A stretch of DNA of 64,000 bases from a virus (lineage: Duplodnaviria; Caudoviricetes). The stretch lies in the IMG/VR virus record IMGVR_UViG_3300029913_000001; one strand, written 5' to 3'. This document shows positions 44,919 through 63,481 of the stretch, piece after piece; position 1 is the stretch's first letter, and every line of letters starts with the position of its first letter. The notes beneath the pieces are model-generated. The model did not search any database and was not told the DNA's origin. It saw only the letters and a program-made list of their open reading frames with translations. A program made the translations under genes and the position numbers.

Positions 44919-45509
44919 TTATATTGTATAGTGGAATTTATTCGGCATATTTTTCTTAATATCAAAATCTAAAAAATTATCTAATTGATTTTTATATTCG
45001 TCGTATGATACGGCTATATAATTTCCATGTATACATATTTCCATTGATTTTTTAAGAGCAATTTTAATATTTGTGTTATTGTATTTCAACGTCGATACAA
45101 ACTCTTCGGGCGACAAATTTTCTAACTCCTGCTTCGATAATTTAAGTTCTTCATGTAAATCAGCATACCGGCAAAAGGAAAAATCAAAACCATTAATGGG
45201 AAAAATAATATAAGGGTTTCCATAATACTCAGTTGAAAAATAGTCACTTGCGCAAAAAATACTATTTGATCGTAATGCCTTAAACCCGGCGGCACGCAAC
45301 TTACTATCAATTAACTCTTGCAAATCAAGAGTAGTATCCATCGGCTTTCTATTAATAGGTGATTGACCGTTAATTATAGATTTCTCCGATTTAATTCCTC
45401 GGAACAAAACCTTATTACATGAACGAAATATTTTTAAAATATTCGAGCAGTCTGATTCGATTATATAAGAAAATTTACTAAGAGACCCATCAAATTCTAG
45501 TAACTTCAT
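44919..45509 (-). CDS. ALRSNSIFC-family ART-like protein, copy 1
   Basis: MKLLEF leader; LFRGI, ALRSNSIFC, YGNPYIIFP and MEICIHG motifs. Confidence 0.7.
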   Translation of the reverse strand: MKLLEFDGSLSKFSYIIESDCSNILKIFRSCNKVLFRGIKSEKSIINGQSPINRKPMDTTLDLQELIDSKLRAAGFKALRSNSIFCASDYFSTEYYGNPYIIFPINGFDFSFCRYADLHEELKLSKQELENLSPEEFVSTLKYNNTNIKIALKKSMEICIHGNYIAVSYDEYKNQLDNFLDFDIKKNMPNKFHYTI

Positions 45510-45519
45510 TTTACCTTCC

Positions 45520-46377
45520 TTACTCGTCATCGTCTTGATCTTCATCACCTTGAAAAATAGGAACTTGCCCTAATAATTCTAATTGATCTGATTTTAACCA
45601 GCAACTCGATTCACAGTCATATCCGTACGTAAATTGTGTTGCTCCATCATAACCAGCATAACTATATGACCCGAAATTATAATGATGAATGCAATCAAAA
45701 TGCTTCTGTAATTCTTGCCAAGGAAAATCTTTTTTAATCAAATCATCCGGAGACCCGTATGATTTTATTCGTTCCCATTCTGCAGGATCTAAATATGCTG
45801 AATTACCACGGCCCAATTTTTCAAAAATTTCATAAATTATTTTTGCATCATCGGTTGAATCTAATTCATAAACTACAGTGTTCGGCTTAACCTTGTATAC
45901 ATAACCTATTTTACTTTGCCTAGATATTCCCAAATCTCCCATTCCATAGGCTTGTATAAATTTATTCCATCCGCTTGTCCACTTACCATTTGGTAATTTC
46001 TTAGCGGTACTTGTCCATAAAATTGCCCCAACTGGTTTATTATTTCCGGGTAATACCGGGGAGCCGCCGGCTATAACAGGAGCGCCCTCGTTTAAATTTC
46101 TAGACTCCATCGCAGTATCAATATAATTTTTCGCCCAATCGGTAAGATTCCCCTCATCGTCGTATGAATATTTTGCCCTATCTTTAAGTAAATAATCTGA
46201 TCTTTCTTTTTTCGTAGTATATGATACTGATTTTCTGGGTATAAAAAGCTGAAGTGTTCCGTTAGGAGCAACCGTAGTGCCATGTTTTTTGTAATATTCT
46301 AGGGATTCTCTAGCAGCTTCTATTGGATCATATATTGCTTCAATTTTTTTCTTTTTTGCAAATTCATCTATTCTCAT
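45520..46377 (-). CDS. Hypothetical protein with MRIDEF leader, possible ART-like C-terminal domain
   Basis: Internal LNEG site; LWTST...YGYDCES. Confidence 0.6.
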   Translation of the reverse strand: MRIDEFAKKKKIEAIYDPIEAARESLEYYKKHGTTVAPNGTLQLFIPRKSVSYTTKKERSDYLLKDRAKYSYDDEGNLTDWAKNYIDTAMESRNLNEGAPVIAGGSPVLPGNNKPVGAILWTSTAKKLPNGKWTSGWNKFIQAYGMGDLGISRQSKIGYVYKVKPNTVVYELDSTDDAKIIYEIFEKLGRGNSAYLDPAEWERIKSYGSPDDLIKKDFPWQELQKHFDCIHHYNFGSYSYAGYDGATQFTYGYDCESSCWLKSDQLELLGQVPIFQGDEDQDDDE

Positions 46378-46389
46378 TAAAATAGCTCC

Positions 46390-46543
46390 ATATCAATGAT
46401 ATATCGCAGGTAAGGCAGCGACATTCTAATAATCTATTACTCCATTAAGCGGCTACAACTCGATGATTACCATCAATTAAATAATCTTTTCTGTTCCATT
46501 ATTTAACAATAATATTGTTCACGTTAAACTCATCAAATCTCAT
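46390..46543 (-). pseudogene. Remnant of a ParB/Srx-like gene with MRFDEF leader
   Basis: One frame reads MRFDEFNVNNIIVK*WNRKDYLIDGNHRVVAA*WSNRLLECRCL, with two in-frame TAA. Confidence 0.65.
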
Positions 46544-46544
46544 T

Positions 46545-47011
46545 TCATACCTCGCCTGGAATAACTAAAATTTTCGGATATGGCTCAACCCCACATATTT
46601 TAGCTGCATTTAACCGAGTGTTCCCTGCCGTTAATACTCGTTGACCATAATGTTCTATTACCATCGCCATAGGAATTGCATCGTTATTTTCAAATCCTCT
46701 TGCAATTCTAAATGGATCTCTAACATAATCAGAATAATACAAACTTATATCTTGCATCATCTGCAAAGAACTACCATTTGTCAATCTAGAAATTGAATTA
46801 AAATTATCGTATGACAGACGTTCAATTTTGCCCCGTAAAACCGCTAGTTTAGCATTTTTCCAGGTAGACCAGCAATTAATATCTGGTAATCCAATTACAT
46901 CAGGATAATCTCTGTCATTTAAATGTTTGAGATCAAATTCTTTCCGCAACTCGGTATCATTAGGCAAACGCCAATTATCATAATGAATTTGTTTAATTTC
47001 AAAAGTCTCAT
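46545..47011 (-). CDS. ParB/Srx-like protein; 5' end frameshifted in a T-run
   Basis: PMAMVI...LTAGNTRL; ATG at 47011 overlaps the upstream TGA; one extra T restores MRLFEIKQIHYDNWRLP in frame. Confidence 0.65.
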
Positions 47012-47583
47012 ATAATTACTCCAAGCCAGTCTTGAAACCAATATGTTGAAAAAGAATTATAACGAACTGCTGCATATTTTCCATGAAGGTAAACTTCTAC
47101 TCCGGTATGCATAGCAAATCCTAAATCAGTATCTTTAAACTCCAAATCTTTAATAAATTTATCTGTTGACATATTTTGAATTTGAGGAACATTATATTCC
47201 ATTTCTTCTGTTAAATCTCGATATTTGCAATATGTATAATCGAATCCGTTAACTGGAAAAATTACATATAAACTTCCGCCATCGGCGTATGCTATAGCAT
47301 CATTCTCCCGACCCGTGCAAAAAATACTATTTGATCGTAATGCCTTAAACCCGGCCGCTTGTAACTTGTCGTCGATGGCAAATGATAAAAATCTAGGAGT
47401 ATCTCTTGGCAAACGATTTACTGGTGACTCGTCAATTAAATACTTCTCGGAACTCGCTATTCCTCGGTATAAAACTTTTCTATTCTCGCGATACAGCACC
47501 AAAATATCAGAACACTTTTCTTTAATGAAAGAAATTATTGCATCATTACCGCTTCCCGAGTTATTGATTTCTGTTAATCTCAT
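47008..47583 (-). CDS. ALRSNSIFC-family ART-like protein, copy 2
   Basis: MRLTEI leader; LYRGI, ALRSNSIFCT and VEVYLHG motifs. Confidence 0.75.
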   Translation of the reverse strand: MRLTEINNSGSGNDAIISFIKEKCSDILVLYRENRKVLYRGIASSEKYLIDESPVNRLPRDTPRFLSFAIDDKLQAAGFKALRSNSIFCTGRENDAIAYADGGSLYVIFPVNGFDYTYCKYRDLTEEMEYNVPQIQNMSTDKFIKDLEFKDTDLGFAMHTGVEVYLHGKYAAVRYNSFSTYWFQDWLGVII

Positions 47584-48587
47584 ATCTTACCATCGCAGGC
47601 CTTAACAATGTTACTTTGACTCTTACGTCCGATCCGATAAAATTCATCGGCGGTTAACCATTTTGTTTCACTAACTTCAAAACCAGGTTTATCAAAATCT
47701 ACGGGATCGGTTACTTCCCCAATAAAAATAGTCATCTCACTGGTTTCTGTATATCCTGTTATTTCACCTTTCCAACCAATCTTAACGGTGTTAGAAATCA
47801 AATTTGAAGGTCTCAACCCGCATTCTTCGTTTGCTTCTCTAAGCCCTGCTTGCATTTCGTTTTCACCAGCATCAACATGCCCCTTTGCAATCATGGGCTT
47901 GTCCCCACCATACGACGGATCGCTGCTAATAACAAATAACATTCGAGCTACGCCGTTATTATCTCGGTAATACGGAATAAATCCGGCTTTTTTAATTTGG
48001 CTACGATCCCAAGCTTCTTCTAAGTTATTGGACATCGTACCTTTTAATTCACATTCAGCACAACAAAATTTCTGGTCAGTCGAATGAATATTTTTAAATG
48101 TTATTCCACAAACTGGACATTTTTTATCAACTGTTTTATCCGCATTTGCAAATTCATTATACGTTAAACTTTCTTGTACAAGATCCCTCTTTTTCATTTT
48201 ACGCATAAAACCATCTGGGCGATGAAGGAAAGACGAAATGAGATCTTCCTTCTTACTTCCAATATTGCCACCCTCAGCAAATGTATTGGCGATTTCTGTA
48301 GCCGCATTAACTATATCATTCATTGTTAATTTACGAGGTTTTTTTCCTCGCAATTCTTCCCACATTAGATACATAAAATCCGAAGGATCATCATATATCT
48401 CAGCTAATACTTTTTTATTAGTCATATTAATTCTCGAACATCCCATAAATTTTGTACTTAAAATTTTTGATTTCTTGGGCTCAGCACCTAAAATAGGGCC
48501 GAGCTCGTCAACTTTATCTTGTGGCCCGAGCCACTGAGAATTTCTATACGATTTATCAGATCCTAAAATTGTTTTTTTCTTTTTCAC
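47580..48587 (-). CDS. Multi-module protein with C-terminal Nudix hydrolase
   Basis: Nudix box GHVDAGENEMQAGLREANEECGL; CPVC...CCAEC zinc finger; modules separated by LAEI, VQES and LEEA. Confidence 0.8.
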   Translation of the reverse strand: MKKKKTILGSDKSYRNSQWLGPQDKVDELGPILGAEPKKSKILSTKFMGCSRINMTNKKVLAEIYDDPSDFMYLMWEELRGKKPRKLTMNDIVNAATEIANTFAEGGNIGSKKEDLISSFLHRPDGFMRKMKKRDLVQESLTYNEFANADKTVDKKCPVCGITFKNIHSTDQKFCCAECELKGTMSNNLEEAWDRSQIKKAGFIPYYRDNNGVARMLFVISSDPSYGGDKPMIAKGHVDAGENEMQAGLREANEECGLRPSNLISNTVKIGWKGEITGYTETSEMTIFIGEVTDPVDFDKPGFEVSETKWLTADEFYRIGRKSQSNIVKACDGKI

Positions 48588-49525
48588 TATTTCACCAAAC
48601 TTAAAAAGTCAAATCGTCGTCTTGCGGCTTCGTAGCAATCGTTATCTATTGCAATGTAAGCCCCATGCACCCAAACATCTTGCCCTTTACTCAACGCCCA
48701 TGCTAAATCAGTATCATAAAATTCATTCACCCGCATATATTCTTCTACTATATCTGGGTTAGTTGGTTCTAAATTAATCTTTTCGGATATTTTATCAGCC
48801 TCTTCTCTAAATTCTTCAAATATAGGATATTTTTGCACCAAAATATAAAACTCTTTTAATATTTTATTTATTTTGCCGCGGATCTGATAAATCGTATGGT
48901 AATTCTGTATAATAGTACCTATAGTGTAGGCATCTTTTAAAAATTTTTTTACTTTTATATCTGAACTAGCTATCGTATTGAATTGTTTTTTATAAAATGC
49001 AGACTCTAGTATCTGGTCTATTATTAACCTATGCACATGCGTTTTTAATTCAACTAAAGGACATATATACTCTCTGGCAGTAGTCCAGGTCCATCTTTTA
49101 CTATACCCAAAAGTAAATCCGTTAATAGGTAATATTAGAAAAACTCGGCCCCAGGATCCGGCATCAGAAATGCTTGAAGTGCAAAAAATACTATTACTAC
49201 GCAATGCAGTAAATCCAGAAGATGACATACAATAATCTGCATACTTAACGGCCTTCGCGATTTCATCGTTAGCCAAACGCTGTTCGATACTTTTTCGTTT
49301 TGCTGGAGGATATCCCATAAAAATGGTTGATCCACCCGAAACGCCTTTTATCCCTCGATATAGATAATTATCAGATTCTTTTGCATCTTTTAAAAATTCA
49401 GAGCAATTTTTAAAAATCCATTTTTCAATTTTGGCTAGCTCAGTCGCGGCCGAGGTATAGTTAATCGAAGAAAATGTATTCGGCTTCAGCATAGCGGGAT
49501 CCGGCATTAACTCATTTATCAACAT
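48587..49525 (-). CDS. ALRSNSIFC-family ART-like protein, copy 3
   Basis: MLINEL leader; LYRGI, ALRSNSIFCTS and QDVWVHG motifs. Confidence 0.75.
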   Translation of the reverse strand: MLINELMPDPAMLKPNTFSSINYTSAATELAKIEKWIFKNCSEFLKDAKESDNYLYRGIKGVSGGSTIFMGYPPAKRKSIEQRLANDEIAKAVKYADYCMSSSGFTALRSNSIFCTSSISDAGSWGRVFLILPINGFTFGYSKRWTWTTAREYICPLVELKTHVHRLIIDQILESAFYKKQFNTIASSDIKVKKFLKDAYTIGTIIQNYHTIYQIRGKINKILKEFYILVQKYPIFEEFREEADKISEKINLEPTNPDIVEEYMRVNEFYDTDLAWALSKGQDVWVHGAYIAIDNDCYEAARRRFDFLSLVK

Positions 49526-49553
49526 GTTTTACTCCTATTCCCTATATCTTGAT

Positions 49554-50192
49554 TTAGTCGAATTCTTCATTTTCTGGGTTATACTTAACCGGTAGACCCT
49601 TAAAATCATCGGCATTAATTTTGGTTTCTTCATGCTTAATAGCAACATAAGCGCCGTGAATCCAAACATCATAATGATTAATTAATGGCCATTGCAAATT
49701 AGTATTGTATAATTCATTGTAATCTAAAAATTCTTCTACATGTTCTGCATTCATCATTCTAGGACGAATATTATATGCGCACGCATTACAATTAGTAAAA
49801 GCCTTACTATATCCAAATGTAAATCCATTAATAGGATATATTTCATATACCTCTCCCCAAGATCTCGCCGCCCCGGTAAAAGAATTACAAAAAATACTAT
49901 TACTTCGTCGAGCCGGCCATCCCGCTAACTTGAGAAGAAAATCAACCTTCTCCGCGGCCTCTGTTGAATAATATTCAACCGTAGGTCGATTTTCCCTAGA
50001 ATAGCCAATAAAAGATTCTCGGGTTTCGTTCTTAATACCGCGATATAATTTATAATCACCCGCAACAGATAAAAATTCGGAGCAATGCTCAACAATCCAG
50101 GATTGCAATTTATCCGATTTATATCTAGCAAGAGATAATTGCTGTCCGGGTTTTAGCAAATCAACTCGATTTAAAATTTCATTTAACCGCAT
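49554..50192 (-). CDS. ALRSNSIFC-family ART-like protein, copy 4
   Basis: MRLNEI leader at 50192; LYRGI, ARRSNSIFC and YDVWIHG motifs. Confidence 0.75.
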   Translation of the reverse strand: MRLNEILNRVDLLKPGQQLSLARYKSDKLQSWIVEHCSEFLSVAGDYKLYRGIKNETRESFIGYSRENRPTVEYYSTEAAEKVDFLLKLAGWPARRSNSIFCNSFTGAARSWGEVYEIYPINGFTFGYSKAFTNCNACAYNIRPRMMNAEHVEEFLDYNELYNTNLQWPLINHYDVWIHGAYVAIKHEETKINADDFKGLPVKYNPENEEFD

Positions 50193-50364
50193 TTTTTCTC
50201 TTCTTCCTATGTCGTTTAATCGGAGAATAAATTGATGAATTAGGGTCACCGCCAAAAAACTGTCCAGCCGGAGGTGTACCCATTGGGCTATTAACAGTTG
50301 ATATAGATCCAGAGCTTGTTCCCCCGCTTGATCCATTTTCTCGAATTATGTCTTTTATCTTCAT
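50179..50364 (-). CDS. Small Gly/Ser-rich protein with MKIKDIIRE leader
   Basis: ATG at 50364 just after an ATAAATA late promoter; basic C-terminus. Confidence 0.6.
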   Translation of the reverse strand: MKIKDIIRENGSSGGTSSGSISTVNSPMGTPPAGQFFGGDPNSSIYSPIKRHRKKRKNAVK

Positions 50365-50372
50365 ATTAATAT

Positions 50373-50804
50373 TTATCGTTTTATTGTTGAACGAAGGAAC
50401 CAAGCAAATTTTTCTTGGGAATCGATTAATCCTTGCACGAAATTTTGTAACCCTAATTGATCGGGTGCCGATGCGTTAACTTCATTAAGAACTTCTATTA
50501 ATTTTTCATTATCAATCAACAATTCTTGAATCATTTCTTGCGCAGGTAAAATACCAGCAAAATCAGATAACACCGATAATCCCATTATTTGTTGAAGACC
50601 GAGGGGAGTAAAAATATCAAGTGCTCGCATCTCTTCTCCAATCCCATCATAGGCAGTATCAACCGATTCATATATGAGTTGTAATAATTTATGCAATTCA
50701 TAAAATCTCGGGCCAGTAATATTAAAGTGTGCAATATGAACCTTAATTGTATAATGTAACACCGTAGCAGTCGCTACCGCCAGCACTTCCTCTAAATTTT
50801 TCAT
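50373..50804 (-). CDS. dps: Dps/ferritin-like protein
   Basis: HFNITGPRFYELHKLL...D.IGEEMRAL...EKFAWFLRS. Confidence 0.88.
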   Translation of the reverse strand: MKNLEEVLAVATATVLHYTIKVHIAHFNITGPRFYELHKLLQLIYESVDTAYDGIGEEMRALDIFTPLGLQQIMGLSVLSDFAGILPAQEMIQELLIDNEKLIEVLNEVNASAPDQLGLQNFVQGLIDSQEKFAWFLRSTIKR

Positions 50805-50889
50805 TTAATCTCCTATTTTGAAAATTGAATCTTCTGCTTTTCATTTAATTTAGAACTAATCTTCCAATGTTTTAATTGTATATTCGGCA

Positions 50890-51153
50890 TCATGCCAGTT
50901 GCCCATCCTTGGCATCCATAATTTTAATAACTCTGGATAATATTTCAGTTTTTATGTCAGAGTTATTCCAATCTTTATCAACAAACAGATAAAATGGTTT
51001 CCACTTATTACCAATTATTTGCATGATTACCGTACCAATTTCCCCAAAACCTTTACAATACCCAGATAATACATACACCGAAATTTTTGAACCGTTAGTT
51101 AATTTTCCAGTCCATTTAATTTTGTTCGAATTGTTAATTTCATTTACTCGCAT
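50890..51153 (-). CDS. Small protein with MRVNEI leader
   Basis: Leader motif; intact ORF in the operon. Confidence 0.5.
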   Translation of the reverse strand: MRVNEINNSNKIKWTGKLTNGSKISVYVLSGYCKGFGEIGTVIMQIIGNKWKPFYLFVDKDWNNSDIKTEILSRVIKIMDAKDGQLA

Positions 51154-51179
51154 AGTTATACTGCTTTTAAAATTTCTGA

Positions 51180-52232
51180 TTATTTCTTTAGACCAAAATA
51201 TTTACATAATAATTTGTCATAATTAATTTCTAGAATATCCTGTCTAATTGCTACATAATGCCCACAAATACATACCTCATTCCTCGTTTTCATTGCTTGA
51301 TCAAGATTATTAGTACGTATGTTATGATATTTTAAAAAATTATTTGATTGTTGCTTACGATCACTTGCCTGCATAATAAGTTTGTACGCGGTTTTTATGT
51401 TGGCGGATGAAATTGAATTCAACTTATATTTTTTAGCAATCTTGCAATAGGTATCTAACGTTGTTTTAATTTTTAATAATTCTTTATTCATGCTAGCTAA
51501 GACATCGGCTGTGTCGTAGGCATCAAAAAATCTAGCATCTGACCAATATTCTTCAATACTTTCTATTATTCTACCGTCCGTTCTTGATAGTTCGGAAAAA
51601 TCTGGAAAGGCTACGGAAAAACTCCTCAATAAAGTTAATAATTTTTTAAATTCTATATTGCTATCAATTATATCATCCACAGATATTTCCCAATCTTCAT
51701 GCTTACTCCAGGTATATGAAAATCCATCACAAGGAAAAATACAAAATATATGCCCATAACCATCTGCACCCAGACTGTTACTTATACAAAAAATACTATT
51801 TGATCGTATTGCCTTACAACCACCAAGCGATAATAATTCATCCACATTTTTTTGAATTTTTTTCGGAGTATCCAATGGACGTCTATTCAATCGTGAAGCA
51901 CCTATAAAATAAACCGTTTTGGGATCTATATCTCGTGATCCGCGATATAATAATGAACTTGATTTTTTCATGTATCTTAAATATTCACTACAATTCTCCT
52001 CTATAAATCGGCAAACTTTTAAAAATCGAAGTTTATCTTTATCCCGCATTGATGCGGGATAAAGATTTAGCAATATTTTCTTGCTAGGCGTTAAATTTGC
52101 ACTAAATAAGTCGCCTTCTACCGTTGATCCCGGTTTTAATTTCTTATAATTTTTCATAGGTAATTTACCCACTCTCTTAATCTTTTTCGTGATTTTAATC
52201 TCAGTTATCTTATTGTATGAATTAATAATCAT
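51180..52232 (-). CDS. ALRSNSIFC-family ART-like protein, copy 5, with helical insertion
   Basis: LLYRGS, AIRSNSIFC, YGHIFCIFP and NEVCICG motifs; start uncertain. Confidence 0.7.
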   Translation of the reverse strand: MIINSYNKITEIKITKKIKRVGKLPMKNYKKLKPGSTVEGDLFSANLTPSKKILLNLYPASMRDKDKLRFLKVCRFIEENCSEYLRYMKKSSSLLYRGSRDIDPKTVYFIGASRLNRRPLDTPKKIQKNVDELLSLGGCKAIRSNSIFCISNSLGADGYGHIFCIFPCDGFSYTWSKHEDWEISVDDIIDSNIEFKKLLTLLRSFSVAFPDFSELSRTDGRIIESIEEYWSDARFFDAYDTADVLASMNKELLKIKTTLDTYCKIAKKYKLNSISSANIKTAYKLIMQASDRKQQSNNFLKYHNIRTNNLDQAMKTRNEVCICGHYVAIRQDILEINYDKLLCKYFGLKK

Positions 52233-53826
52233 TTTTAGCAATTCTCTCATTTTTATTAACAGATTCATTAAAATCATTTGCTGCTCTCTGCCGATAATCA
52301 GTTGGCACATTAATTGTCTTCTTACCATGACAATATACGCATTTTTTCTTCTTGCCATTTATTAATGTAAATCCTTTTCCATCGCATCGAAGGCAAGTTA
52401 GCTGCGCTTCACTTATCTCTAAACCCGGAGTATCATTGGAGTTTATTACTTCATTCATCCCAATTTTAATTATTTTATCGAGTAAGGTTTTATTATTTAA
52501 TGCCACAGCTATATATTTTCCATGAATATAAACCTCAAACATTTTATTCAATGCATCGGTTAAAAAAAGATTAGTAAAACCATATGTTTGTGTGAATTCC
52601 CTGGCCGGCATATTAATCGAATCATTAACAAATGAATTATCACTATAAGTATTGTCTTCATTAAACAAAACGTAGTGTAATCCAAATTTTCCTGTTAAGT
52701 CAAGTGCTCTTCTACACCAGGTATATGAAAATCCATTTAAAGGAAAAATAACATATACTTTTCCGTGATTAGTCTTATCATGATCATTACTATAATTACT
52801 GGCAATCAACTTATCCGACGTACAAAAAATACTATTTGATCGTAATGCAGTAAATCCAACTTTGGATAATGCCGAATCCAATAATTCCGATGCTTTCTCA
52901 TTTGAATCTACCGGCATACGATTTTTAACTTCTTTCCCAAATAAAATAGGTTCGACCGAATGAATACCACGATATAAAAAATCATGATCTTTATAAATTT
53001 GCAAAATATCTGTGCAATTAGTTTTAATAAATCTAACTATTCTATCTTCTTGATTAGGCGTCATACTTTCTTTTAAACTTTTAAAATATTCGACCTCGCC
53101 TTCATGTTTTGCGTCAGCTCTATGACTATCAAAAGTTCCGAGATTCTTACCTTTATGGGAAAGCAATCGATATTTTCCATTCTTTAATTTAACAATATGT
53201 TCGTCTAATTTTGGCGGGGATAATAATACTCGATCGAGTATTACTTTTATTTTATTAACTTTCGTAGATTTAGGGTATAACTCTTGAATGATTTGATATC
53301 TGTCTGTTTCAGAGCCGTTTGCATACATTTCACGAATCTTACTAGCAGAGCTAATATTCTGGCCAAGTATTTTATATTGTATTGCTGGAACAACTACATA
53401 ATAGGCATGCTTATCAAATGTCTGCAATGGAGTAGTAGATGAAACTGGATATGGCTGCATATACGAAAGTTCCCCATTTTTCTTAATAGGAGAACCAAGG
53501 CGATCTCGATCTTTCGATGATAAACCAAAAATTAAAACGGTATTTGCTGAATCATATTTTCCAGTTATTTCGGTAGATTTATACGGACTTACTACTTCAA
53601 CAAATTTATCTTCAGGAACTCCTGCTTGCGCAGCTAAAAATCTCTTCTCTGCAAATGAAAATGGTCGCTCAGACATTTTATTTGAACTAGCCACATATAA
53701 ATCTGCCTTTGGAAATTTATTTTTAAGATAATTATATACTGCGGTATGCCCAGCCGACCATGGGTGAAATCCACCGGGAAATATGCAGAGCTCGTGATAT
53801 CTAGTTTCAAATTCAGAAAGAAGCAT
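52222..53826 (-). CDS. Polyprotein-like fusion: HIGH-type nucleotidyltransferase + small basic domain + ALRSNSIFC ART-like domain (copy 6) + zinc finger
   Basis: IFPGGFHPWSAGH; EHIVKLKNGKYRLLSHKGKNLGT; LYRGI/ALRSNSIFCTS/FEVYIHG; CLRCDGKG...CVYCHG. Confidence 0.75.
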   Translation of the reverse strand: MLLSEFETRYHELCIFPGGFHPWSAGHTAVYNYLKNKFPKADLYVASSNKMSERPFSFAEKRFLAAQAGVPEDKFVEVVSPYKSTEITGKYDSANTVLIFGLSSKDRDRLGSPIKKNGELSYMQPYPVSSTTPLQTFDKHAYYVVVPAIQYKILGQNISSASKIREMYANGSETDRYQIIQELYPKSTKVNKIKVILDRVLLSPPKLDEHIVKLKNGKYRLLSHKGKNLGTFDSHRADAKHEGEVEYFKSLKESMTPNQEDRIVRFIKTNCTDILQIYKDHDFLYRGIHSVEPILFGKEVKNRMPVDSNEKASELLDSALSKVGFTALRSNSIFCTSDKLIASNYSNDHDKTNHGKVYVIFPLNGFSYTWCRRALDLTGKFGLHYVLFNEDNTYSDNSFVNDSINMPAREFTQTYGFTNLFLTDALNKMFEVYIHGKYIAVALNNKTLLDKIIKIGMNEVINSNDTPGLEISEAQLTCLRCDGKGFTLINGKKKKCVYCHGKKTINVPTDYRQRAANDFNESVNKNERIAKNDY

Positions 53827-53836: not shown

Positions 53837-54805
53837 TCAGTTATATTTATGAAAGAATGGCCCAAGAATAAGATCCCCTTCCTGTGAATACAATTCTTTA
53901 TTAATTTGTAAAATCCATTCAGGCGCAATGTTCTTTCTTCTATAATTTTTTAAAAATAAATGTGTTTCTATCGGAATATCACCGTAAACCTGCAATACAC
54001 CTAGCATTCGATGTCTACCTTCATGATCTATAACTTTAGCTGCACTTCTAAAATTTAAGTCTTCCCAGTTACTCGGAATTTGGATACTTAAAAATGGGCT
54101 TCCAATAGAATTACCATTTTTAATATATTCTCGCATATTATCTACCGAATCAGAAAAATGTGAGAAAGACGGTGTCAATGACAAAAATGAGCTCGGCTTC
54201 ATTGCTACCCGCAACCCAAAATAATCTATATCTTCATTATTGGGAGTTGCACCGGCACCTCTCTTATTATCTATTTTAACTTCCTCAGATATATTCTTTG
54301 AAAATATTTTTGATAACTTTTTAAATGTATTTTTAACGCCCGAATCTTCGTATAATATTCCGATTCCACCCGCAACATTCCAGGATTTAATATTATCATC
54401 CAAATCGTCGATTAATATATTACTATTCCCAACGTATTCATCTTTATTAAAAGCAAAAATAGCGGGAATACCCCCTAAACCATTCTTTTTTAACCATAAC
54501 TTTTTCCCTGCTATACATTCTTCTGTATTAGGAGGGCCCACGGGACGGCTTAAAAAAATATATGGAATTTTTCTATTGTCGAACCAAGCTAATAATTTTT
54601 TTCCATTTGGCATCCATTCTAAATTTGCAAAGAATTTCTTAATGTCGCCGTTATTAATAACATTGCTCCAATACTTATTGTTCCATCCATAGGATTCAAA
54701 TTCCTCTAGCGTAAGATGATTAAAATCAGCCGCGCCCTTAGCACAATCTGCCAGACACCCATCTAGATCTATAAATACTTTGCGTTCGATTTCAGAAATT
54801 CTCAT
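53837..54805 (-). CDS. Fusion of HAD 5'(3')-deoxyribonucleotidase-like and ParB-like domains
   Basis: FIDLDGCLAD and ILIDD (HAD); linker ISEE; DHEGRHR (ParB-like); late promoter near 54811. Confidence 0.75.
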   Translation of the reverse strand: MRISEIERKVFIDLDGCLADCAKGAADFNHLTLEEFESYGWNNKYWSNVINNGDIKKFFANLEWMPNGKKLLAWFDNRKIPYIFLSRPVGPPNTEECIAGKKLWLKKNGLGGIPAIFAFNKDEYVGNSNILIDDLDDNIKSWNVAGGIGILYEDSGVKNTFKKLSKIFSKNISEEVKIDNKRGAGATPNNEDIDYFGLRVAMKPSSFLSLTPSFSHFSDSVDNMREYIKNGNSIGSPFLSIQIPSNWEDLNFRSAAKVIDHEGRHRMLGVLQVYGDIPIETHLFLKNYRRKNIAPEWILQINKELYSQEGDLILGPFFHKYN

Positions 54806-54841
54806 ATTAATATTTATCCAATAACTCGATTAGCAACAAAT

Positions 54842-54874
54842 AAAAAGCCTATCATGATTCATGATAGGCTTTTT
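54842..54874 (-). terminator. Intrinsic terminator
   Basis: AAAAAGCCTATCATGA-T-TCATGATAGGCTTTTT. Confidence 0.85.
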
Positions 54875-54893
54875 ATACTGTTATTTTTACTTT

Positions 54894-56312: not shown

Positions 56313-56321
56313 ATAATTTTC

Positions 56322-56747
56322 CTAATAAGATAATTTTATTGACGATAGAATGCCGTCGGAAATATTTGAAACATTTGCGCGTAGCCAGGCATATTGGCCA
56401 GTAATTGTGTAAAAGGTATTTGTATTATTTGAAATAAAATTCGGTGTGCCAACAACTGATAAATTGTTATAAAATACTAGTTGCTCGTCTGAATCACCGG
56501 TAATTGTATTTGTCAAAGGAATACTTACCCAGGGACCGGAAGAAGAATCCCTGGATAAACTTGCTTCAATTACAATGTTCCCGGTAAAATTAGTAGTCTG
56601 AATTTGCATAGTTTGAAAACCACCGGCTTTTAGAGAAAGGCCAGCAGCTTTAACGGGTTCAGATATATGAGTTGGTTTTTTACTTTCATTACCAACGCCG
56701 CCGCGAAAATCTAATCCCGAAACCATTACAATTCCAAAATCTGTCAT
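56322..56747 (-). CDS. Hypothetical beta-rich protein
   Basis: Intact ORF; FTGNIVIEASL...WLRA. Confidence 0.6.
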   Translation of the reverse strand: MTDFGIVMVSGLDFRGGVGNESKKPTHISEPVKAAGLSLKAGGFQTMQIQTTNFTGNIVIEASLSRDSSSGPWVSIPLTNTITGDSDEQLVFYNNLSVVGTPNFISNNTNTFYTITGQYAWLRANVSNISDGILSSIKLSY

Positions 56748-56911
56748 CGACTAACTTCTACCAATATAGTTGCATCTTCTAATAGTCCCTCTACCGCGGC
56801 CTGCAATGTTTCGATCTGATCATCCGAAATCATTTCGTGAGGATCGTTATCATTATCACGAAGTATGGTCGATAAAGTAATTGTAATGTTTTCATCTAAA
56901 ATTTTTGCCAT
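56744..56911 (-). CDS. Small hypothetical protein
   Basis: MAKILDENITITLS after AGGAG. Confidence 0.55.
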   Translation of the reverse strand: MAKILDENITITLSTILRDNDNDPHEMISDDQIETLQAAVEGLLEDATILVEVSR

Positions 56912-56912
56912 G

Positions 56913-59174
56913 TTATTTCTCCTGTACCGGTTTCTTAATGGAAATAGGAAAAGTATTAATTGCTGTTCCAATTACAAGATTATTACCCACCCAATCTAAA
57001 TTAACAGTCGCTCCGTTTGGAATGATTCCGTTTAATAGTTTAACGCTAAGTGGATATCTAATTAAAGAATCAATAATACCAGAAATCTTTCTTGCCCCAT
57101 ATTCATTACTCTTATTTAGCTCGAGCACATGGCTGATAAGATTTTCAGTCGCAATAATAGTTAAATTTTTATCGGTAAGCGCAGCGATTTCTGCAATTTT
57201 TGTTTGTGCGATTTTACGATAACTAAGATCGTCCAAACTATTATATTCAATCATAGCTGTAATGCGTCCTCGGATTTCAGTGAGGAAAACATTATTAATA
57301 GCCTTTGTAACTGCACTCATGCCATTTGAGTCCGGAATAAAACCTAAATTAATCTTACTCTTTTCTCGACTGCCTACATTACTACTCATAATAATAATTG
57401 TATTTTTGCAATCGGCTGTTTTTCCACTGGCACTTGAAATAGTACCTTCATCCATCATCTGAAGAAGCAAGGTGTATAAATTTGGATTTGCTTTTTCGAT
57501 TTCGTCGAAAAGAATAACCGAATTTGGATGCTTCATTAAATCGTTGATAAGTTTGCCTTCTCCTGCATCCCCATCCCCATATCCTTTATATCCAGGGGGC
57601 GCACCGATTAATGTCGCCATTGCGTGATCTGCCTGATATTCACTCATATCGTAACGAAGTAAATGCATATTCATATACGATGCAAGTTGCTTTGCGGTGT
57701 AAGATTTACCTACGCCGCTAGGGCCGGTTAGTAAAAAACTACCAATGGGTTTAGATGGATCTCGCAACCCGGCTTGTGAAATAATTAGGGACTCGGCAAT
57801 TTTATCAATTGCATGTGTCTGATGGAAAATTTTTGAATTTAGGGTCTCTCGAATATTAAGAATATCGGCCGCGTTATTCTGATCAGTCGTCTTAACCAAA
57901 ATGCCGGTACTAGTTTCGATCTCTCGAATAATATCCAATTTTGTAATACGCTTATTCTTATCTTTAGCAACCGTTTTACGGGCGCAAGCAGAATCGATCA
58001 GATCAATTGCTTTATCTGGAAGCTGCCGATCTGGCTGATAACGAACGGATAATTCGACTGCGGCTTCGATTGCATCGTCCTGAATACGGCATTTATGGAA
58101 TTTATTAAAACTGTTCTTAACTCCTTGAAGAATTAAAATAGTTTCTGCTTTACTCGGTTCCTTTAGAGCAAGCAATCGAAACCTACGCATAAGAGCGGTA
58201 TCTTTCTTAAATGTCTGGGTATATCCATCCCATGTAGTTGCTGCAATAACTTTAATATTACCGCGACTAAGTTCAGGTTTCAACATTGCTGAAAAGGCAA
58301 CACCGGAATCATTTGAGCCGCCTCCGGAATTAATCTGTTGAGCCTCATCTATAAAAAGAATGGCATTTTTTTCATTAACTAATGCGGCTAAGACATTCTT
58401 AATCTTTTCCTCAAAATCTCCTCGGAAATGGCAACCGGCTAAAACCGATCCAACATCTAGACTATAAATAATCTTATCTTTTAAAGTACTGGGTACAATA
58501 CCCGCATTAATATTACGAGCTAATCCTTCAATTAATTCCGATTTACCTACTCCAGGTTCCCCAACCACAAGTACATTATTCTTTTTCTTCTTCGACAGTG
58601 CATGTGCAATGTCAAACAATTCAATTTCCCGGCCAATTAGCACATCGGTAGTACCTTTAACTTTTTCATTTAAATTCACACAAAATTCAGCTAATGCGGT
58701 AGTTGACTGTGTATCAGACGTTGTTAATTGATCTAGTCCGTCAATAATTTTGGAAGTAATGCCGTATTTCTCTAGAAAATAACTAGCATACGACTCCTTT
58801 TCGTTATATAACTTACGAAAAATATCACCAAAAGTTACTTCTCTGCCATATTTTGTGGCTTCGGAGTAAGCCGAAACTAAAACTTTTTGCACCGAGGCTG
58901 TAATTTGCCCAGTCATAATATTCGGCTCGTTACTGGCAATTTTATTTTGAAGTCTAGGAGTTTGTGCTTCGATAAACTTTTTGATGGCCTCAGCCATCAA
59001 ACTAACCGAAACTCCCTGATTTTCGAGATACTTCCGGACAGATGAATACGACAAACTTGCATAAAGAATATGTTCGAGAGTAATAGTTGTTTGATCTAAA
59101 TTAATAGCAAGCTGAAAACTAATATCAATAAGATTCTTAATTAACGGCGATCCGTTCGAAGTAGCAGTTGGCAT
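56913..59174 (-). CDS. clpA: ClpA/ClpB-type AAA+ chaperone
   Basis: Clp N domain (LEHILYA), GEPGVGKS, FIDE, LPDKAIDLID, GPSGVGKS, GAPPGY and LFDEIEKA motifs. Confidence 0.92.
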   Translation of the reverse strand: MPTATSNGSPLIKNLIDISFQLAINLDQTTITLEHILYASLSYSSVRKYLENQGVSVSLMAEAIKKFIEAQTPRLQNKIASNEPNIMTGQITASVQKVLVSAYSEATKYGREVTFGDIFRKLYNEKESYASYFLEKYGITSKIIDGLDQLTTSDTQSTTALAEFCVNLNEKVKGTTDVLIGREIELFDIAHALSKKKKNNVLVVGEPGVGKSELIEGLARNINAGIVPSTLKDKIIYSLDVGSVLAGCHFRGDFEEKIKNVLAALVNEKNAILFIDEAQQINSGGGSNDSGVAFSAMLKPELSRGNIKVIAATTWDGYTQTFKKDTALMRRFRLLALKEPSKAETILILQGVKNSFNKFHKCRIQDDAIEAAVELSVRYQPDRQLPDKAIDLIDSACARKTVAKDKNKRITKLDIIREIETSTGILVKTTDQNNAADILNIRETLNSKIFHQTHAIDKIAESLIISQAGLRDPSKPIGSFLLTGPSGVGKSYTAKQLASYMNMHLLRYDMSEYQADHAMATLIGAPPGYKGYGDGDAGEGKLINDLMKHPNSVILFDEIEKANPNLYTLLLQMMDEGTISSASGKTADCKNTIIIMSSNVGSREKSKINLGFIPDSNGMSAVTKAINNVFLTEIRGRITAMIEYNSLDDLSYRKIAQTKIAEIAALTDKNLTIIATENLISHVLELNKSNEYGARKISGIIDSLIRYPLSVKLLNGIIPNGATVNLDWVGNNLVIGTAINTFPISIKKPVQEK

Positions 59175-59219
59175 AATGTCCCTTTCATTTATAAGTATAA
59201 AACATTATTCATACGTAAG

Positions 59220-59810
59220 TCAAGAGAAAAACGAAACTAACTGAATAAAAAGATCTCCTCGCAGTTTTGTTTTTCGATTGAATAAACCAGCATCGGGTAT
59301 TCGATAAATTGTTTTTGATTTACATCTTTTCGGTATCGAAATTCGGAATCGTACGCCATCGGGTCCAATTATTGTTATTTCCCCGCCTACTATACTCTTC
59401 CAAAAAGATACTCGAATTTTTTGAATTAATTTATCGGCTATTACAATAAAATCATTGGGCATTTCTACCTTAATTTTTGCTTGCAAAATAGAAAATCGAT
59501 CTTCCTCTAGCTGAATATTTCGAAAACATAACGATTCTCCAGTTTTAATACCGGCAGGTATTGATAATCGAAAGGTTCGATTACCATCATTGGACATAAA
59601 ATATCGTTCACATCCTAATATAGAATCTTGTAAAGATATCGCAATTTTAATCTGAAAAATTGTATTAAGACATTTGTTATATTCAAGATTCAGCAAATTA
59701 AATTTTTCTGCGGCTAGCGGATCAGTTGGATGTAAATCTGGATGGCATTCTTTTGCCAATTTTCGATAATTAGAGTGAATTTGATTGAAAAAGATAGAAG
59801 AGTTAGGCAT
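59220..59810 (-). CDS. DnaJ/CbpA-like co-chaperone
   Basis: YRKLAKECHPD J-domain; C-terminal IPAGI...GDLFI. Confidence 0.85.
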   Translation of the reverse strand: MPNSSIFFNQIHSNYRKLAKECHPDLHPTDPLAAEKFNLLNLEYNKCLNTIFQIKIAISLQDSILGCERYFMSNDGNRTFRLSIPAGIKTGESLCFRNIQLEEDRFSILQAKIKVEMPNDFIVIADKLIQKIRVSFWKSIVGGEITIIGPDGVRFRISIPKRCKSKTIYRIPDAGLFNRKTKLRGDLFIQLVSFFS

Positions 59811-59833
59811 TATTCACCCCGTGCTAATTAGAT

Positions 59834-60286
59834 TTAAATTCGATATTGTAATTCCTTCTCAGTTTCTTGCTTAACTATAAATTTAATAGGTGGGCATAAT
59901 CCATTCCAAAATTCTGGTGTGCCATCTGGCATTTTTTTTCTTAGTGCATCATTTGTTACAATTAATTCTACTTCTCTCCAAGCCAAGCTCGATCTCGATT
60001 CATGCAGGGATAAAATTTCAAATCGAAATTTGTCTTTTCCTCTTAAGGTAATTTCTTCATTTAATGTCTTACAACTACCGGTATATTTTTTCCAATTCGA
60101 TTCATTTATTACTTTTTTTCTATTTGTTCTGTTTTTAATTTTTTTTCGGGTTGTCATAAAAAAGAATTTCTTGCCGATATATTTGCGATTGGTATCTATA
60201 CATGTAATTTTATACACAAAGCCAATCCATTCAGTTGGATCAAAATTAAATGGAAATTCCCAATGTCCTATGTCTATTTTTTCCAT
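59834..60286 (-). CDS. Stand-alone GIY-YIG nuclease-domain protein
   Basis: GFVYKIT...RKYIGKK...WKKYTGS...EVEL. Confidence 0.8.
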   Translation of the reverse strand: MEKIDIGHWEFPFNFDPTEWIGFVYKITCIDTNRKYIGKKFFFMTTRKKIKNRTNRKKVINESNWKKYTGSCKTLNEEITLRGKDKFRFEILSLHESRSSLAWREVELIVTNDALRKKMPDGTPEFWNGLCPPIKFIVKQETEKELQYRI

Positions 60287-60341
60287 ATCAATATTTAGCT
60301 GAACATACCGAAATAAGAAAATAGTTAACTATTTTATCGAA

Positions 60342-60857
60342 TTATTTACCGATTATTAAATTTTTCGCAGCTAATTTTTTATTGGAAAATATTTTCTTTT
60401 GTCTATTACGTGATTTGTAATAAGCGGCGTCTTTTAAAATTCGTTGTCGAAAAATCCATTCGTTGTCTTTTAAAAGAATAGCAATTGAAATCGTATTTGG
60501 ATTTAACTGAAATAATAGATCAGTGTCATTAAAAAAATCAATTATGTCATCTCGTAAAATTCCTATACGAAAATTTTCGGTTTTGCTATAAGAAATTATT
60601 CCCTTTTCTTTTAAACTATAATATTGTTCTATAATTGACATAAAAATATAATTGGGAATATCTTGCCAATCGCAATACAGTTTAATTTCATTAATTGTAT
60701 CAATCCAAAAATTTTTATCTATTTCATTAATTGAATTGTCGAAGTCAATTATCATATTCCAAAAATTCATTGATATATCAAAAAATATTAAAAATAATTG
60801 TTTTTGCAATTCATTTAATTTAATAATTTCATCTTGATAATATGATACATATTTCAT
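60342..60857 (-). CDS. Hypothetical protein
   Basis: ATG at 60857 after AAGGA; the upstream extension in the track runs through the cruciform. Confidence 0.5.
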   Translation of the reverse strand: MKYVSYYQDEIIKLNELQKQLFLIFFDISMNFWNMIIDFDNSINEIDKNFWIDTINEIKLYCDWQDIPNYIFMSIIEQYYSLKEKGIISYSKTENFRIGILRDDIIDFFNDTDLLFQLNPNTISIAILLKDNEWIFRQRILKDAAYYKSRNRQKKIFSNKKLAAKNLIIGK

Positions 60858-60906
60858 AAATATATTTCCTTGTTTTGCTTTTCCGAGTGGTGGATGACAA
60901 CACCAA

Positions 60907-61010
60907 GCGAAAGCGATATGCGAAGCCAGTGAACGACAGTGAAACATCTCATCAAATATTATTAAAATTTTTCACTGTCGTTCACTGGCTTCGCTTACTG
61001 GCGCTTTCGC
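60907..61010. repeat. Large GC-rich inverted repeat with AT-rich loop (origin candidate)
   Basis: Perfect 25-bp arms at 60920-60944 and 60970-60994, outer 9-bp arms GCGAAAGCG/CGCTTTCGC, 25-nt AT-rich loop. Confidence 0.9.
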
Positions 61011-61087
61011 TATGTGCTCTCCACAAGTCCGAAAAGCGAAAATTTTAAATATTTTTGATGAATTAAAAATAAAATTATGGTTATTTT

Positions 61088-61536
61088 AAAGACAAAGACG
61101 CTTGGGGCGCCTCCCGTCTCTTTGGAACAACTTCCAAACTAAACTCCAATCCTTCCTATCCCGCTATATCATTAAGATCCGGCTCTTCATTTTGGGCTTC
61201 CGGGGCTTCATAGGAATTTCAGCGGTTATGCTGTACTGAAATAAGACCGTGCGGTCTATGATTGATCTGAAAAACACAACGCAATTATTTCAAATGAGTT
61301 TAGCAATTTGAAATAACTATATCAGGATTAGGAGCATTACGCTCTCGCCTTTACCTGTCTGTCTTTGTCACTTTTCTCAAGCCATGATAGCTATATTGAT
61401 GGGGGGACCCTCCAGGTAGTACTCTACCAACGACATTGGACACTAGGAGTTGCTGGGTGTTTAAGGCCAATAACCTTTGATCTAAATTGTAGGTATTGCT
61501 CCATATTTGCTACTCCATAAGTATTTTCCATGATTA
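61088..61536 (-). ncRNA. Candidate large structured non-coding RNA (about 450 nt)
   Basis: Own sigma70 promoter; no long ORF; several hairpins plus a long-range helix (61361-61369 with 61091-61099). Confidence 0.5.
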
Positions 61537-61542
61537 ATATAC

Positions 61543-61571
61543 AATATAACATTGATACGTTAACTTGTCAA
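61543..61571 (-). promoter_or_regulatory. sigma70-type promoter pointing into the non-coding region
   Basis: TTGACA-17 nt-TATATT. Confidence 0.8.
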
Positions 61572-61584
61572 GACATTTTTTATT

Positions 61585-62886
61585 TTATTTGAAAAAATAA
61601 TTTGCTTCTTCTATCTGTTCAACTGTAGCATTGGGAAAAAATAAATTTCTCATATTTTGAGCCATAGCCTTAGTTGGTAGATATACAATATTGTTATTAT
61701 ATGCTCCGGTTCTTAAGGAACTACGTAAAAGACCTTGATATGAGTGAGATAGCGTATGATGCATTAAAATTTCGTCAGCATCGAATCCGAGATCTACCAT
61801 TTTTTTCTGGTACGCGGGTGGCCACCTATAAGCACCAGATTCTCCGTAATTATGTGTACCAACATAGGTGTTTAATCCCTTAACTTCAAACGGCATAAAA
61901 ATAGGATTTTTAATATGGGTAAATTTATTACCTTTATTATTCTGTAACAAAATTTCGTTATCACCAATTGAATTTCCAACTAATAGATCGAATAATTCGA
62001 AATTGGTAAGAGTTGGTTCTATAAGATTTTTTGAGTTGTAGTAATTTTTACTCCATAGACTAATTTTTTCGGTCATCCATTTGATAGTAATAGGTTGATC
62101 GTGCTTATCAAATCTTTTAGGAATTACAAACTCTTCAATTGCAATGCCTTTTAACTTAAAATAGGCTATGATTTTACTACGTTGAATTTCTGCGCCCATT
62201 AAATAAATGTTTTCAAAACCTTCAAATATGTTGGTATTTAATTCAGCCCACATTTCGGCTTCGTAATTACCAAATTTAAAAGCTGTCAATGATGCAGTAT
62301 CCGCATATATTTTCATATTGGGATTCAATATCAATTGAATAAATTTTTGGAATGGCGGGTAAATAAAATCGTCGCGAAAGCAAAGAGTTTTTAAAAATCG
62401 CTGATCTTCTTTTGAGAGACGTTTTCGCTTAATAGACGTGTACCCACCGGCATTTATTTTGCAGGTACTAATTTTTTCAATATCTGCCATTAGGTCATTA
62501 CCGAATTCATAACTTGATGCATCGTCCGAATCAAAAGTAATGAAGTCAGTTGGTTCTATTTCTTCATCAACAAAAACAGTCCAATTTTTTTTATTCGGAA
62601 AATTCAAAATATTCTTAAATGCCGCATGTGTAATAATAAGGACTTCGCATCGTAATGGTATTGTTAGATATGCATTGATTGCCTTAGTAACACCCATACT
62701 GTCATTTTCCATATAATTGATAATTTTATATGGGGTATTTCCCAATCGTTTAGCAATTTCGTATTGCAAATCGGTTGAGGGGGTTACGAAAAGCACTCGT
62801 TTTTTGTTATTAACGAGTTCTTTAGATAAGTTAACAGCAAAATATGTTTTGCCGGCCCCGCACAACGAATTAATATATCTTATCAT
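61585..62886 (-). CDS. SF2 helicase-like, origin-binding-type protein
   Basis: SLCGAGKT Walker A, VTPS, IITH, VFVDE and YQGLLRSSLR motifs. Confidence 0.7.
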   Translation of the reverse strand: MIRYINSLCGAGKTYFAVNLSKELVNNKKRVLFVTPSTDLQYEIAKRLGNTPYKIINYMENDSMGVTKAINAYLTIPLRCEVLIITHAAFKNILNFPNKKNWTVFVDEEIEPTDFITFDSDDASSYEFGNDLMADIEKISTCKINAGGYTSIKRKRLSKEDQRFLKTLCFRDDFIYPPFQKFIQLILNPNMKIYADTASLTAFKFGNYEAEMWAELNTNIFEGFENIYLMGAEIQRSKIIAYFKLKGIAIEEFVIPKRFDKHDQPITIKWMTEKISLWSKNYYNSKNLIEPTLTNFELFDLLVGNSIGDNEILLQNNKGNKFTHIKNPIFMPFEVKGLNTYVGTHNYGESGAYRWPPAYQKKMVDLGFDADEILMHHTLSHSYQGLLRSSLRTGAYNNNIVYLPTKAMAQNMRNLFFPNATVEQIEEANYFFK

Positions 62887-62892
62887 CGTTTG

Positions 62893-62921
62893 ATTATAAT
62901 TGATTTTATGCCGAATGTCAA
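62893..62921 (-). promoter_or_regulatory. sigma70 consensus promoter for the helicase gene
   Basis: TTGACA-17 nt-TATAAT. Confidence 0.9.
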
Positions 62922-63481
62922 GCTATTAATTCCTTGATAAGTGCATTGAATTTTTCTTCCGCCAAGAACATACATTTTCCAGTAATTAGTATTTCATTAC
63001 CTGATGTAGTTGCCTTTAACAAATTATCCTGCCTAAATGAATATAACGAAGTAAACTCGTTGGGATCCATGTCTATAATTTTAGGTGCGTATTTTGAATA
63101 TTTGCCCTGATCATAATTCGTATATAAATCTTGCATCGTTTCTGACCATGTGAACTCGAAGTTATTGAATGGGAAGGTTATGAAAATTTTTCCATATCTA
63201 TTTGCCACAGATCTTTTATTTGTGCAGAAAATACTATTCGATCGTAGAGCCTTAAATCCTGCTGCTGATAATTTTTCATCAAATATTTTTTGTTGTTTAA
63301 TAGAAAATGACATTGGGTGCCTATCGGCAACCTTAGAAATAATAAACATATTTTCTAATCGGTGTGATCCGTGATAAAGAAATTCACCCGAAGATTTGTA
63401 GAAATCAACAATTTGAGAGCAAGATTTGCTGATAAATTTTTTAATATTATTGAGGTCTGGAGTAATTTCAAATTCTCTCAT
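62918..63481 (-). CDS. ALRSNSIFC-family ART-like protein, copy 7
   Basis: LYHGS, ALRSNSIFCT, YGKIFITFP and NEILITG motifs; TAATG coupling to the tail fibre gene. Confidence 0.72.
   Translation of the reverse strand: MREFEITPDLNNIKKFISKSCSQIVDFYKSSGEFLYHGSHRLENMFIISKVADRHPMSFSIKQQKIFDEKLSAAGFKALRSNSIFCTNKRSVANRYGKIFITFPFNNFEFTWSETMQDLYTNYDQGKYSKYAPKIIDMDPNEFTSLYSFRQDNLLKATTSGNEILITGKCMFLAEEKFNALIKELIA

Follow-up and report, generated by a model that had tools for sequence, protein, structure and literature searches.

Seven Paralogous Genes Encode a Common Domain

The 64,000-nucleotide (nt) stretch of DNA analyzed here, referred to as the window, comes from a virus of the Caudoviricetes, a giant T4-like phage from peat (IMG/VR record IMGVR_UViG_3300029913_000001), and carries seven minus-strand open reading frames (ORFs), copies A to G, that share one domain (Table 1). 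This domain corresponds to phrog_11975, a PHROGs family of unassigned function (E 4.3e-18 to 4.9e-33), and is called the ALRSNSIFC family after its core motif. All coordinates are positions in the window, and motif and leader counts cover all of its ORFs. An earlier note made from the sequence had picked out the seven ORFs by an ordered set of motifs and read them as an unannotated ADP-ribosyltransferase (ART)-like domain. The phrog_11975 matches and the alignment confirmed the ORFs with their motif order, and scans of all seven copies against Pfam and NCBIfam returned nothing credible. A profile built from five copies and metagenomic homologues recovered the two held-out copies (C at 8e-45, E at 2e-49) and found no eighth phrog_11975-type member in the window.

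In the alignment, the Gly of L-Y-R-G, the Arg of N-R-x-P, the segment A-x-R-S-N-S-I-F-C, the Pro and Phe of I-F-P-x-x-G-F, and the Gly of H-G are invariant in all seven copies. The DNA sharing among four copies described in the earlier note was also found: four copies share an exact 19-mer that encodes R-S-N-S-I-F, and a fifth has it with two mismatches (0 expected). Copies A and B share a 39-nt identical run (45252-45290 versus 47317-47355) that spans A-G-F-K-A-L-R-S-N-S-I-F-C, synonymous sites included; outside it the two proteins are about 41% identical. This run could be a gene-conversion tract or reflect extreme constraint. The array region is low in guanine and cytosine (32-37%), with tightly packed minus-strand genes.

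Gene starts were revised for some copies. A strong Shine-Dalgarno sequence, AAGGAAGG, lies upstream of position 45509, making this the most likely start of copy A, and copy D probably starts at 50192. The longer ORF of copy E, beginning at 52358, overlaps copy F; the start of copy E is therefore placed at 52250 or 52157. Copy E has a long insert before strand 5 of the domain, and no canonical leader was seen in it. Copy F is a fusion protein. Its ART-fold domain occupies residues 250-459 (52450-53079) and follows a cytidylyltransferase-like nucleotidyltransferase part (residues 1 to about 245) with the motif G-G-F-H-P-W-S-A-G-H. This N-terminal part resembles a phage clade of PF01467 (Atlas score 0.95, TM 0.75) and has a weak NMNAT match (TIGR00482, E 0.03). 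C-terminal to the ART domain lies a CxxC...CxxC zinc ribbon with a weak DnaJ_CXXCXGXG match.

The seven ORFs are paralogues that diverged long ago within a large, phage-restricted family. Pairwise identity among them is 29-40%, and for each one other phage contigs contain a match at least as good as any within its own genome; the duplications are therefore old, and every copy has been kept. An exhaustive profile search gave 7,457 representative clusters (defined at 50% identity) at E <=1e-3, a lower bound on family size, and 955 at <=1e-30. Some proteins hold up to five tandem family domains, and arrays in IMG/VR reach 14 family copies within 20 kb and can take up 10-20 kb of a phage genome. 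Entries of the family in the ESM Atlas, BFVD and AFDB are nearly all viral and unnamed; the family is without a name or a Pfam model and is unannotated in PHROGs, AFDB and BFVD. Scanning 185,579 prokaryote species genomes for the ALRSNSIF core motif turned up no relative, and megablast against 50,697 phage records gave no match. Only two cultured phages were found to carry the family: Agrobacterium phage Atu_ph07, where tblastn matched 7 places and the profile recognized 11 proteins, and Ralstonia phage RsoM2USA. Among 42 long members, the Pfam tally showed fusions to GNAT, DUF4116 and YwqH-like domains only. A tally of 70 neighbor genes gave Nudix, ferritin and DUF6267 three times each, along with T4-type structural genes, and no consistent NAD-pathway partner appeared among these neighbors across the wider family.

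The Common Domain Adopts an ART Fold

As the earlier note had suggested, structure prediction and a fold search were carried out, using copy B, the minimal member. The AlphaFold2 model (predicted local distance difference test, pLDDT, 89.9; predicted template modeling score 0.86) has the split beta-sheet core of the ART type, with six strands and with helices after strands 1 and 2. The modeled order is strand 1 (residues 39-42), a helix (64-76), strand 2 (87-90), a helix (93-97), strand 3 (104-110), strand 4 (115-118), strand 5 (164-167), and strand 6 (169-174). The top 36 VIA matches of this model were all ART-fold proteins, nearest among them BC2332, Arr, Tpt1, DarT, and the diphtheria toxin group, and not the protein-Arg toxins. 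No single Z score rose above the level reachable by unrelated models. Even so, a list of top matches drawn wholly from one superfamily is not due to chance.

An independent ESM Atlas model placed ART-PolyVal, PARP, DUF3990, and Arr as the nearest named folds, with DUF2441 indicated by sequence features; BC2332/DUF2441 is assigned to the ART superfamily by both SCOP and Pfam. Foldseek against the Protein Data Bank (PDB) and the Swiss-Prot models of AFDB gave no significant match. The highest-ranked rows, all weak, were ART-fold proteins, OspC-type ones included; T4 Alt, ModA, and ModB were not among the rows. A profile search of PDB sequences returned one chance match only. Judging from the models, the core domain of the family almost certainly has the ART fold.

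The Predicted Active Site Does Not Support an R-S-E Assignment

Site statistics were taken from 88 diverse members, numbered on copy B. Strand 1 reads L-Y-[R/H]-G, with Arg at position 40 in 72/88 members, His in 14/88, and G41 in 87/88; six of the seven window copies carry Arg. Residues R57, R83, N85, S86, and P110 are invariant (88/88). Strand 2 reads I-F-C-[TS]-[SG], where F88 is present in 84/88 members and replaced by Tyr in 3/88, and an aromatic residue follows 11 positions later (Y/F99, 87/88). E163, conserved in 87/88, sits directly ahead of strand 164-167. Position 161 is mostly Gly, with Glu in 7/88, and position 162 is Asn or His; the ARTT-type [QE]-x-E signature is absent, with conservation confined to its last Glu. 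The alignment also confirmed two substitutions pointed out in the earlier note, namely Asp for the conserved Glu in copies C and D and His in copy G.

In the published ART layout, strand 1 carries [R/H]-G, strand 2 carries S-x-S or Y-x-x, and strand 5 has x-x-E at its front (PMC7955679). As read from the alignment and the model, strands 1 and 5 of the family fit this layout. The assignment of strand 2 is ambiguous in the model: S84-N85-S86 precedes the modeled strand 87-90, whose end reads C-[TS]-[SG], and F88/Y99 is the other candidate. The H-Y-[EDQ] type has His on strand 1, Tyr on strand 2 with a second Tyr about 11 residues on, and Glu, Asp, or Gln on strand 5; in the family, with the register taken from sequence and secondary structure, the His occurs only in copy G and 16% of members, strand 2 has F88 with Y/F99 at +11, and the acidic residue is Glu or Asp. 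The I-F-C-T-S-x7-Y of the family may be comparable to G-F-Y-S-T-D-x7-Y of diphtheria toxin and Y-x10-Y of the PARPs. Profile comparison by hhalign with T4 ModA, ModB, and Alt gave probabilities of 1.4%, 2.1%, and 0.2%, i.e., no detectable profile similarity to these proteins. The interpretation in the earlier note is partly supported: the ART fold stands, and the placement in the R-S-E clade is not supported. The conserved site is built from Y-[R/H]-G, I-F-C-T...Y, and x-[N/H]-E, with no profile similarity to Alt, ModA, or ModB.

A Second ART-Fold Family Lies in the Array

The gene at 45520-46377, absent from the earlier note's list, encodes a 285-aa protein of an unrelated family whose model (pLDDT 83.8) also contains an ART domain. 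Its best structural matches are MbcT, ParT, diphtheria-toxin homologues, RES toxins, and PARPs, and an ART domain of the cyanophage A4 pre-ejectosome is another. Conserved in its 40 homologues are R48 just after strand 1, W121-T-S-T124 in strand 2, and, at the front of strand 5, D254-x-E256. This predicted triad is of a cleaner R-S-E type than the site of the first family.

A Short N-Terminal Leader Marks Candidate Head Cargo

Copies A, B, C, D, and F begin with the leader M-[RK]-[IL]-x-E, and copy G begins with MREFE. In the form M-[RKL]-[LIE]-x-E-[FIL], the leader opens six family copies (all but E) and also four genes unrelated to them, those for the 285-aa protein and for proteins of 87, 322, and 243 aa (Table 1). 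Across the window ORFs the motif occurs 11 times against 0.74 expected, 10 of the 11 at gene starts. Among the 88 aligned members, M1 and E5 are each kept in 85, and roughly 44% of the 158 unique IMG/VR ORFs of the family have the strict leader form. The leader is the sole profile similarity between the first family and the 285-aa second family; because it alone is common to two unrelated families, it is a separate module.

The leader contains (L/I)-x-E, after which the T4 prohead protease gp21 cleaves, and T4 Alt itself starts MELITE. The T4 capsid-targeting sequence, its processing by gp21, and the ejection of Alt and internal proteins are established (PMC9026906). Proteins gp53-gp63 of Atu_ph07 are family members by profile, and all eleven were detected in virions by electrospray ionization tandem mass spectrometry, with 3-31 unique peptides each (PMC6102473, Table S5). 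Family members of Atu_ph07 start M-[RK]-W-x-Q-L-x-E, an eight-residue leader ending in L-x-E, and gp43 and gp47 start similarly. Within gp1-gp67, 13 of 13 leader-bearing proteins are in the virion versus 29 of 67 genes overall (Fisher p 2.7e-6). A gp21-type protease (PF03420) is encoded by Atu_ph07 and by two near-complete jumbo phages in IMG/VR that have family members. By analogy with these phages, packaging of the family in the phage of the window gains indirect support, and the leader sequences suggest that the 322-aa, 87-aa, and 243-aa proteins may be further head cargo.

Two of the Atu_ph07 virion proteins have composite architectures. In gp53, the family domain is joined to a region that UniProt names a Zeta-toxin domain, and gp54 carries two tandem family domains.

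Genomic Context and Expression

The features of the locus are collected in Table 1.

Table 1. Features of the Window
Feature	Coordinates (strand)	Product or size	Remarks
Copy A	44919..45509 (-); ORF reaches 45548	196 aa from MKLLEF leader-type start	phrog_11975 E 2e-25
Copy B	47008..47583 (-)	191 aa, minimal member	Structure modeled; phrog_11975 E 5e-32
Copy C	48587..49525 (-)	312 aa	Asp for conserved Glu; insert of ~100 aa, predicted helical, before strand 5; phrog_11975 E 4e-18
Copy D	49554..50192 (-); first ATG 50336	212 aa from MRLNEI	Asp for conserved Glu
Copy E	51180..52250 (-); ORF to 52358	356 aa as called in public assemblies	phrog_11975 E 4e-28
Copy F	52222..53826 (-)	Fusion	Leader MLLSEF; phrog_11975 E 4e-27
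Copy G	62918..63481 (-)	187 aa	L-Y-H-G His variant; phrog_11975 E 5e-33
Eighth ART-fold gene	45520..46377 (-)	285 aa	Leader MRIDEF; unrelated second family
322-aa gene	53837..54805 (-)	N-terminal HAD-type 5'-3' deoxyribonucleotidase domain, phrog_2643 E 3e-18	Leader MRISEI; first gene of block, not a family member
87-aa gene	50890..51153 (-)	87 aa	Leader MRVNEI; no family assigned
243-aa gene	16152-16883 (-)	243 aa	Leader M-R-[IV]-x-E-[IL]
Nudix hydrolase gene	47580..48587 (-)	PF00293 E 6e-8, phrog_1185 E 3e-14	Between C and B, overlapping start/stop codons
Terminator-like hairpin	54840..54876		Bidirectional, 17-bp stem; closes upstream unit
Sigma-70-like promoter	62893-62921 (-)		12/12; right after copy G stop, before helicase-like gene
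Sigma-70-like promoter	44564-44592 (-)		12/12; before DNA polymerase gene
Sigma-70-like promoter	44879-44907 (-)		11/12; right after copy A stop, before 86-aa regulator-like gene

The terminator-like hairpin divides glycosyltransferase and chaperone genes from the cargo block, a co-directional run from 54805 to 44919 that starts after it and has no strong sigma-70-like promoter at its head. The promoters directly after the stops of copies A and G suggest that early units abut the cargo genes. Copy G lies directly downstream of a tail-fiber-like gene, whose ORF matches virion structural and tail-fiber PHROGs, and the overlap of their stop and start codons indicates translational coupling. Together, the promoter layout and the coupling of copy G would fit, weakly, non-early expression of the array. 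The T4 late-promoter motif TATAAATA occurs 7 times in the window against 14 expected and gives no support for timing. In two peat metatranscriptome runs, patches of copy A, the 285-aa gene, copies C/D, and copy F were seen at >=99% identity; these are short and shallow and could equally be carried-over DNA.

The Nudix hydrolase encoded between copies C and B also has weak matches to NudE and ADP-compound hydrolases, below the family cutoff. Judged by domain matches, this neighbor and the nucleotidyltransferase fusion of copy F would be compatible with NAD or ADP-ribose chemistry.

Several other genes of the window deserve mention. The family-B DNA polymerase at about 40400-44557 (-) is split into ORFs of 551 and 402 aa that flank a 397-aa ORF belonging to no known family. 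A ClpA/B-like AAA+ chaperone gene (56913-59810) and a DnaJ-like gene (59834-60286), both on the minus strand, are adjacent, as reported for Atu_ph07, and an ORF that follows the pair looks, by eye only, like a GIY-YIG homing endonuclease gene. Two segments appear by eye to be of the ParB/sulfiredoxin type, for which the libraries gave no confirmation: a 140-aa ORF at 46545-46967 (-) with G-N-T-R-L-N-A-A, and the C-terminal half of the 322-aa protein (53837-54295, -) with D-H-E-G-R-H-R.

Relation to Known Systems

The kind of system is already known from T4 Alt and from the virion ARTs predicted by Iyer et al. None of the resources searched describes the family, its site, or its leader-tagged arrays. 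T4 Alt is likewise a phage protein with the ART fold, and its N-terminal propeptide is very short and ends in (L/I)-x-E (MELITE); Alt is loaded into the prohead core, undergoes trimming by gp21, and leaves the head with the DNA on ejection (PMC9026906). Homologues of the family are virion proteins in Atu_ph07. Alt differs in being a 682-aa protein of the R-S-ExE type, whereas the family consists of domains of about 190 aa with an [R/H] / F...Y / x-[NH]-E site and forms arrays of 7-14 copies, and the two have no detectable sequence or profile similarity. Virion-delivered phage ARTs were reported in 2017 and 2022 to be enriched in myoviruses and jumbo phages, some genomes having at least 10 ARTs (Iyer et al., PMC9503650).

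BC2332/DUF2441 (PDB 2aua), of the ART superfamily, is 8% identical to the family and has no hidden Markov model match to it; DUF2441 proteins are bacterial and have neither leader nor arrays. Since DUF2441 has no known function, it offers the family no mechanism. Compared with the Arr and H-Y-[EDQ] group (diphtheria toxin, exotoxin A, PARPs), the family differs on strand 1, where 82% of its members have Arg in place of His, and on strand 2, where Phe replaces Tyr; beyond this group it has the invariant R-x-N-S before strand 2 and the invariant R57. ART-PolyVal shows a weak structural resemblance, and the family has no PF18760 match. ART-PolyVal units are domains of giant MuF- or portal-linked polyvalent proteins, whereas the family members are small, stand-alone proteins, each with its own leader.

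Proposed Function and Alternatives

The reading we favor, to which we give an even chance, is that the proteins are capsid-targeted ART-fold enzymes that use NAD+ on host or defense targets after injection, with a variable region setting specificity. The leader M-[RK]-[IL]-x-E would send the proteins into the prohead core, where a gp21-type protease would remove it as in T4 Alt and internal proteins, and the processed proteins would enter the cell with the DNA. Three elements would make up the NAD+ cleft: strand 1 with Y-[R/H]-G, strand 2 and the next helix with I-F-C-T...Y, and the Glu (Asp in copies C and D) at the start of strand 5. ADP-ribose would then be transferred, as we infer, to host or host-defense targets, and the hypervariable helical region between strands 4 and 5 may give each paralogue a distinct target.

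The chemistry could be different with the same delivery. Packaged ART-fold enzymes might act not on proteins but on nucleic acids, nucleotide signals, or small molecules, or might work as an NADase or phosphorylase, for example, to disarm defense at entry. We consider this unlikely overall, yet the nearest structures point in its direction, as Arr modifies a small molecule, Tpt1 acts on an RNA 2'-phosphate, and DarT acts on single-stranded DNA, and none is a protein-Arg toxin. The three conserved Arg residues (R40, and the invariant R57 and R83) could bind phosphates, the 88-member alignment is without the ARTT-type [QE]-x-E, the adjacent 285-aa protein resembles the NAD+ phosphorylase MbcT and RES toxins, and the array contains both a Nudix gene and a nucleotidyltransferase. 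Somewhat less probable still is that the proteins have no catalytic role and are internal head proteins, blocking host restriction or defense as T4 IPI does or condensing DNA. A leader and the virion presence of homologues are traits shared with non-enzymatic T4 internal proteins, many diverged copies would fit an arms race of binders, and pseudo-ART domains exist, with TASOR and PARP13 among the structural matches. However, the polar residues R57, R83, N85, S86, and E163 show complete or nearly complete conservation among members sharing only 30-40% identity, and they lie at ART active-site places; a plain binding scaffold therefore hardly explains them.

Delivery itself could also be questioned. 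If the proteins were unpackaged cytoplasmic enzymes made during infection, the shared N-terminus would be a signal for translation initiation or stability. The lack of enrichment of the T4 late motif agrees with this, and removal of only five residues would be unusually short. Against it, the leader is kept at the protein level across distant phages, the bearers of the eight-residue L-x-E leader in Atu_ph07 are all virion proteins, and copy G is translationally coupled to a tail-fiber-like gene, which leaves this explanation improbable. Least probable of all is the view of the earlier note that the copies are canonical R-S-E toxin-type ARTs akin to T4 Alt and Mod, in which S-N-S would serve as the S-x-S strand. 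Arg, S-x-S, and Glu do come in the correct order, and L-Y-R-G resembles the Q-L-Y-R-G-I-S of ModB, the sole hhalign match (14 columns); the profile comparisons and the site described above do not support this assignment.

There is also a broader proposal. The (L/I)-x-E tag of five to eight residues might be a general cargo code by which T4-related jumbo phages load unrelated head enzymes, here two ART-fold families, a nucleotidyltransferase fusion, a nucleotidase, and others. On this proposal, the ALRSNSIFC proteins would represent a new ART clade ([R/H] / F...Y / E with the invariant R-x-N-S) acting on non-protein targets, such as nucleic acids or defense signaling nucleotides, at DNA entry. 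We regard this combination as speculative, with perhaps one chance in a few of holding in full.

Herein, a large block of jumbo-phage genes without an assigned function gains a testable one, as ART-fold, leader-tagged cargo, and 11 'hypothetical' virion proteins of Atu_ph07 can be re-read as members of an ART-fold family. The minimal natural packaging tag could help to load proteins into phage heads. The active site is non-canonical, so the family may differ from known phage ARTs in its chemistry and targets.

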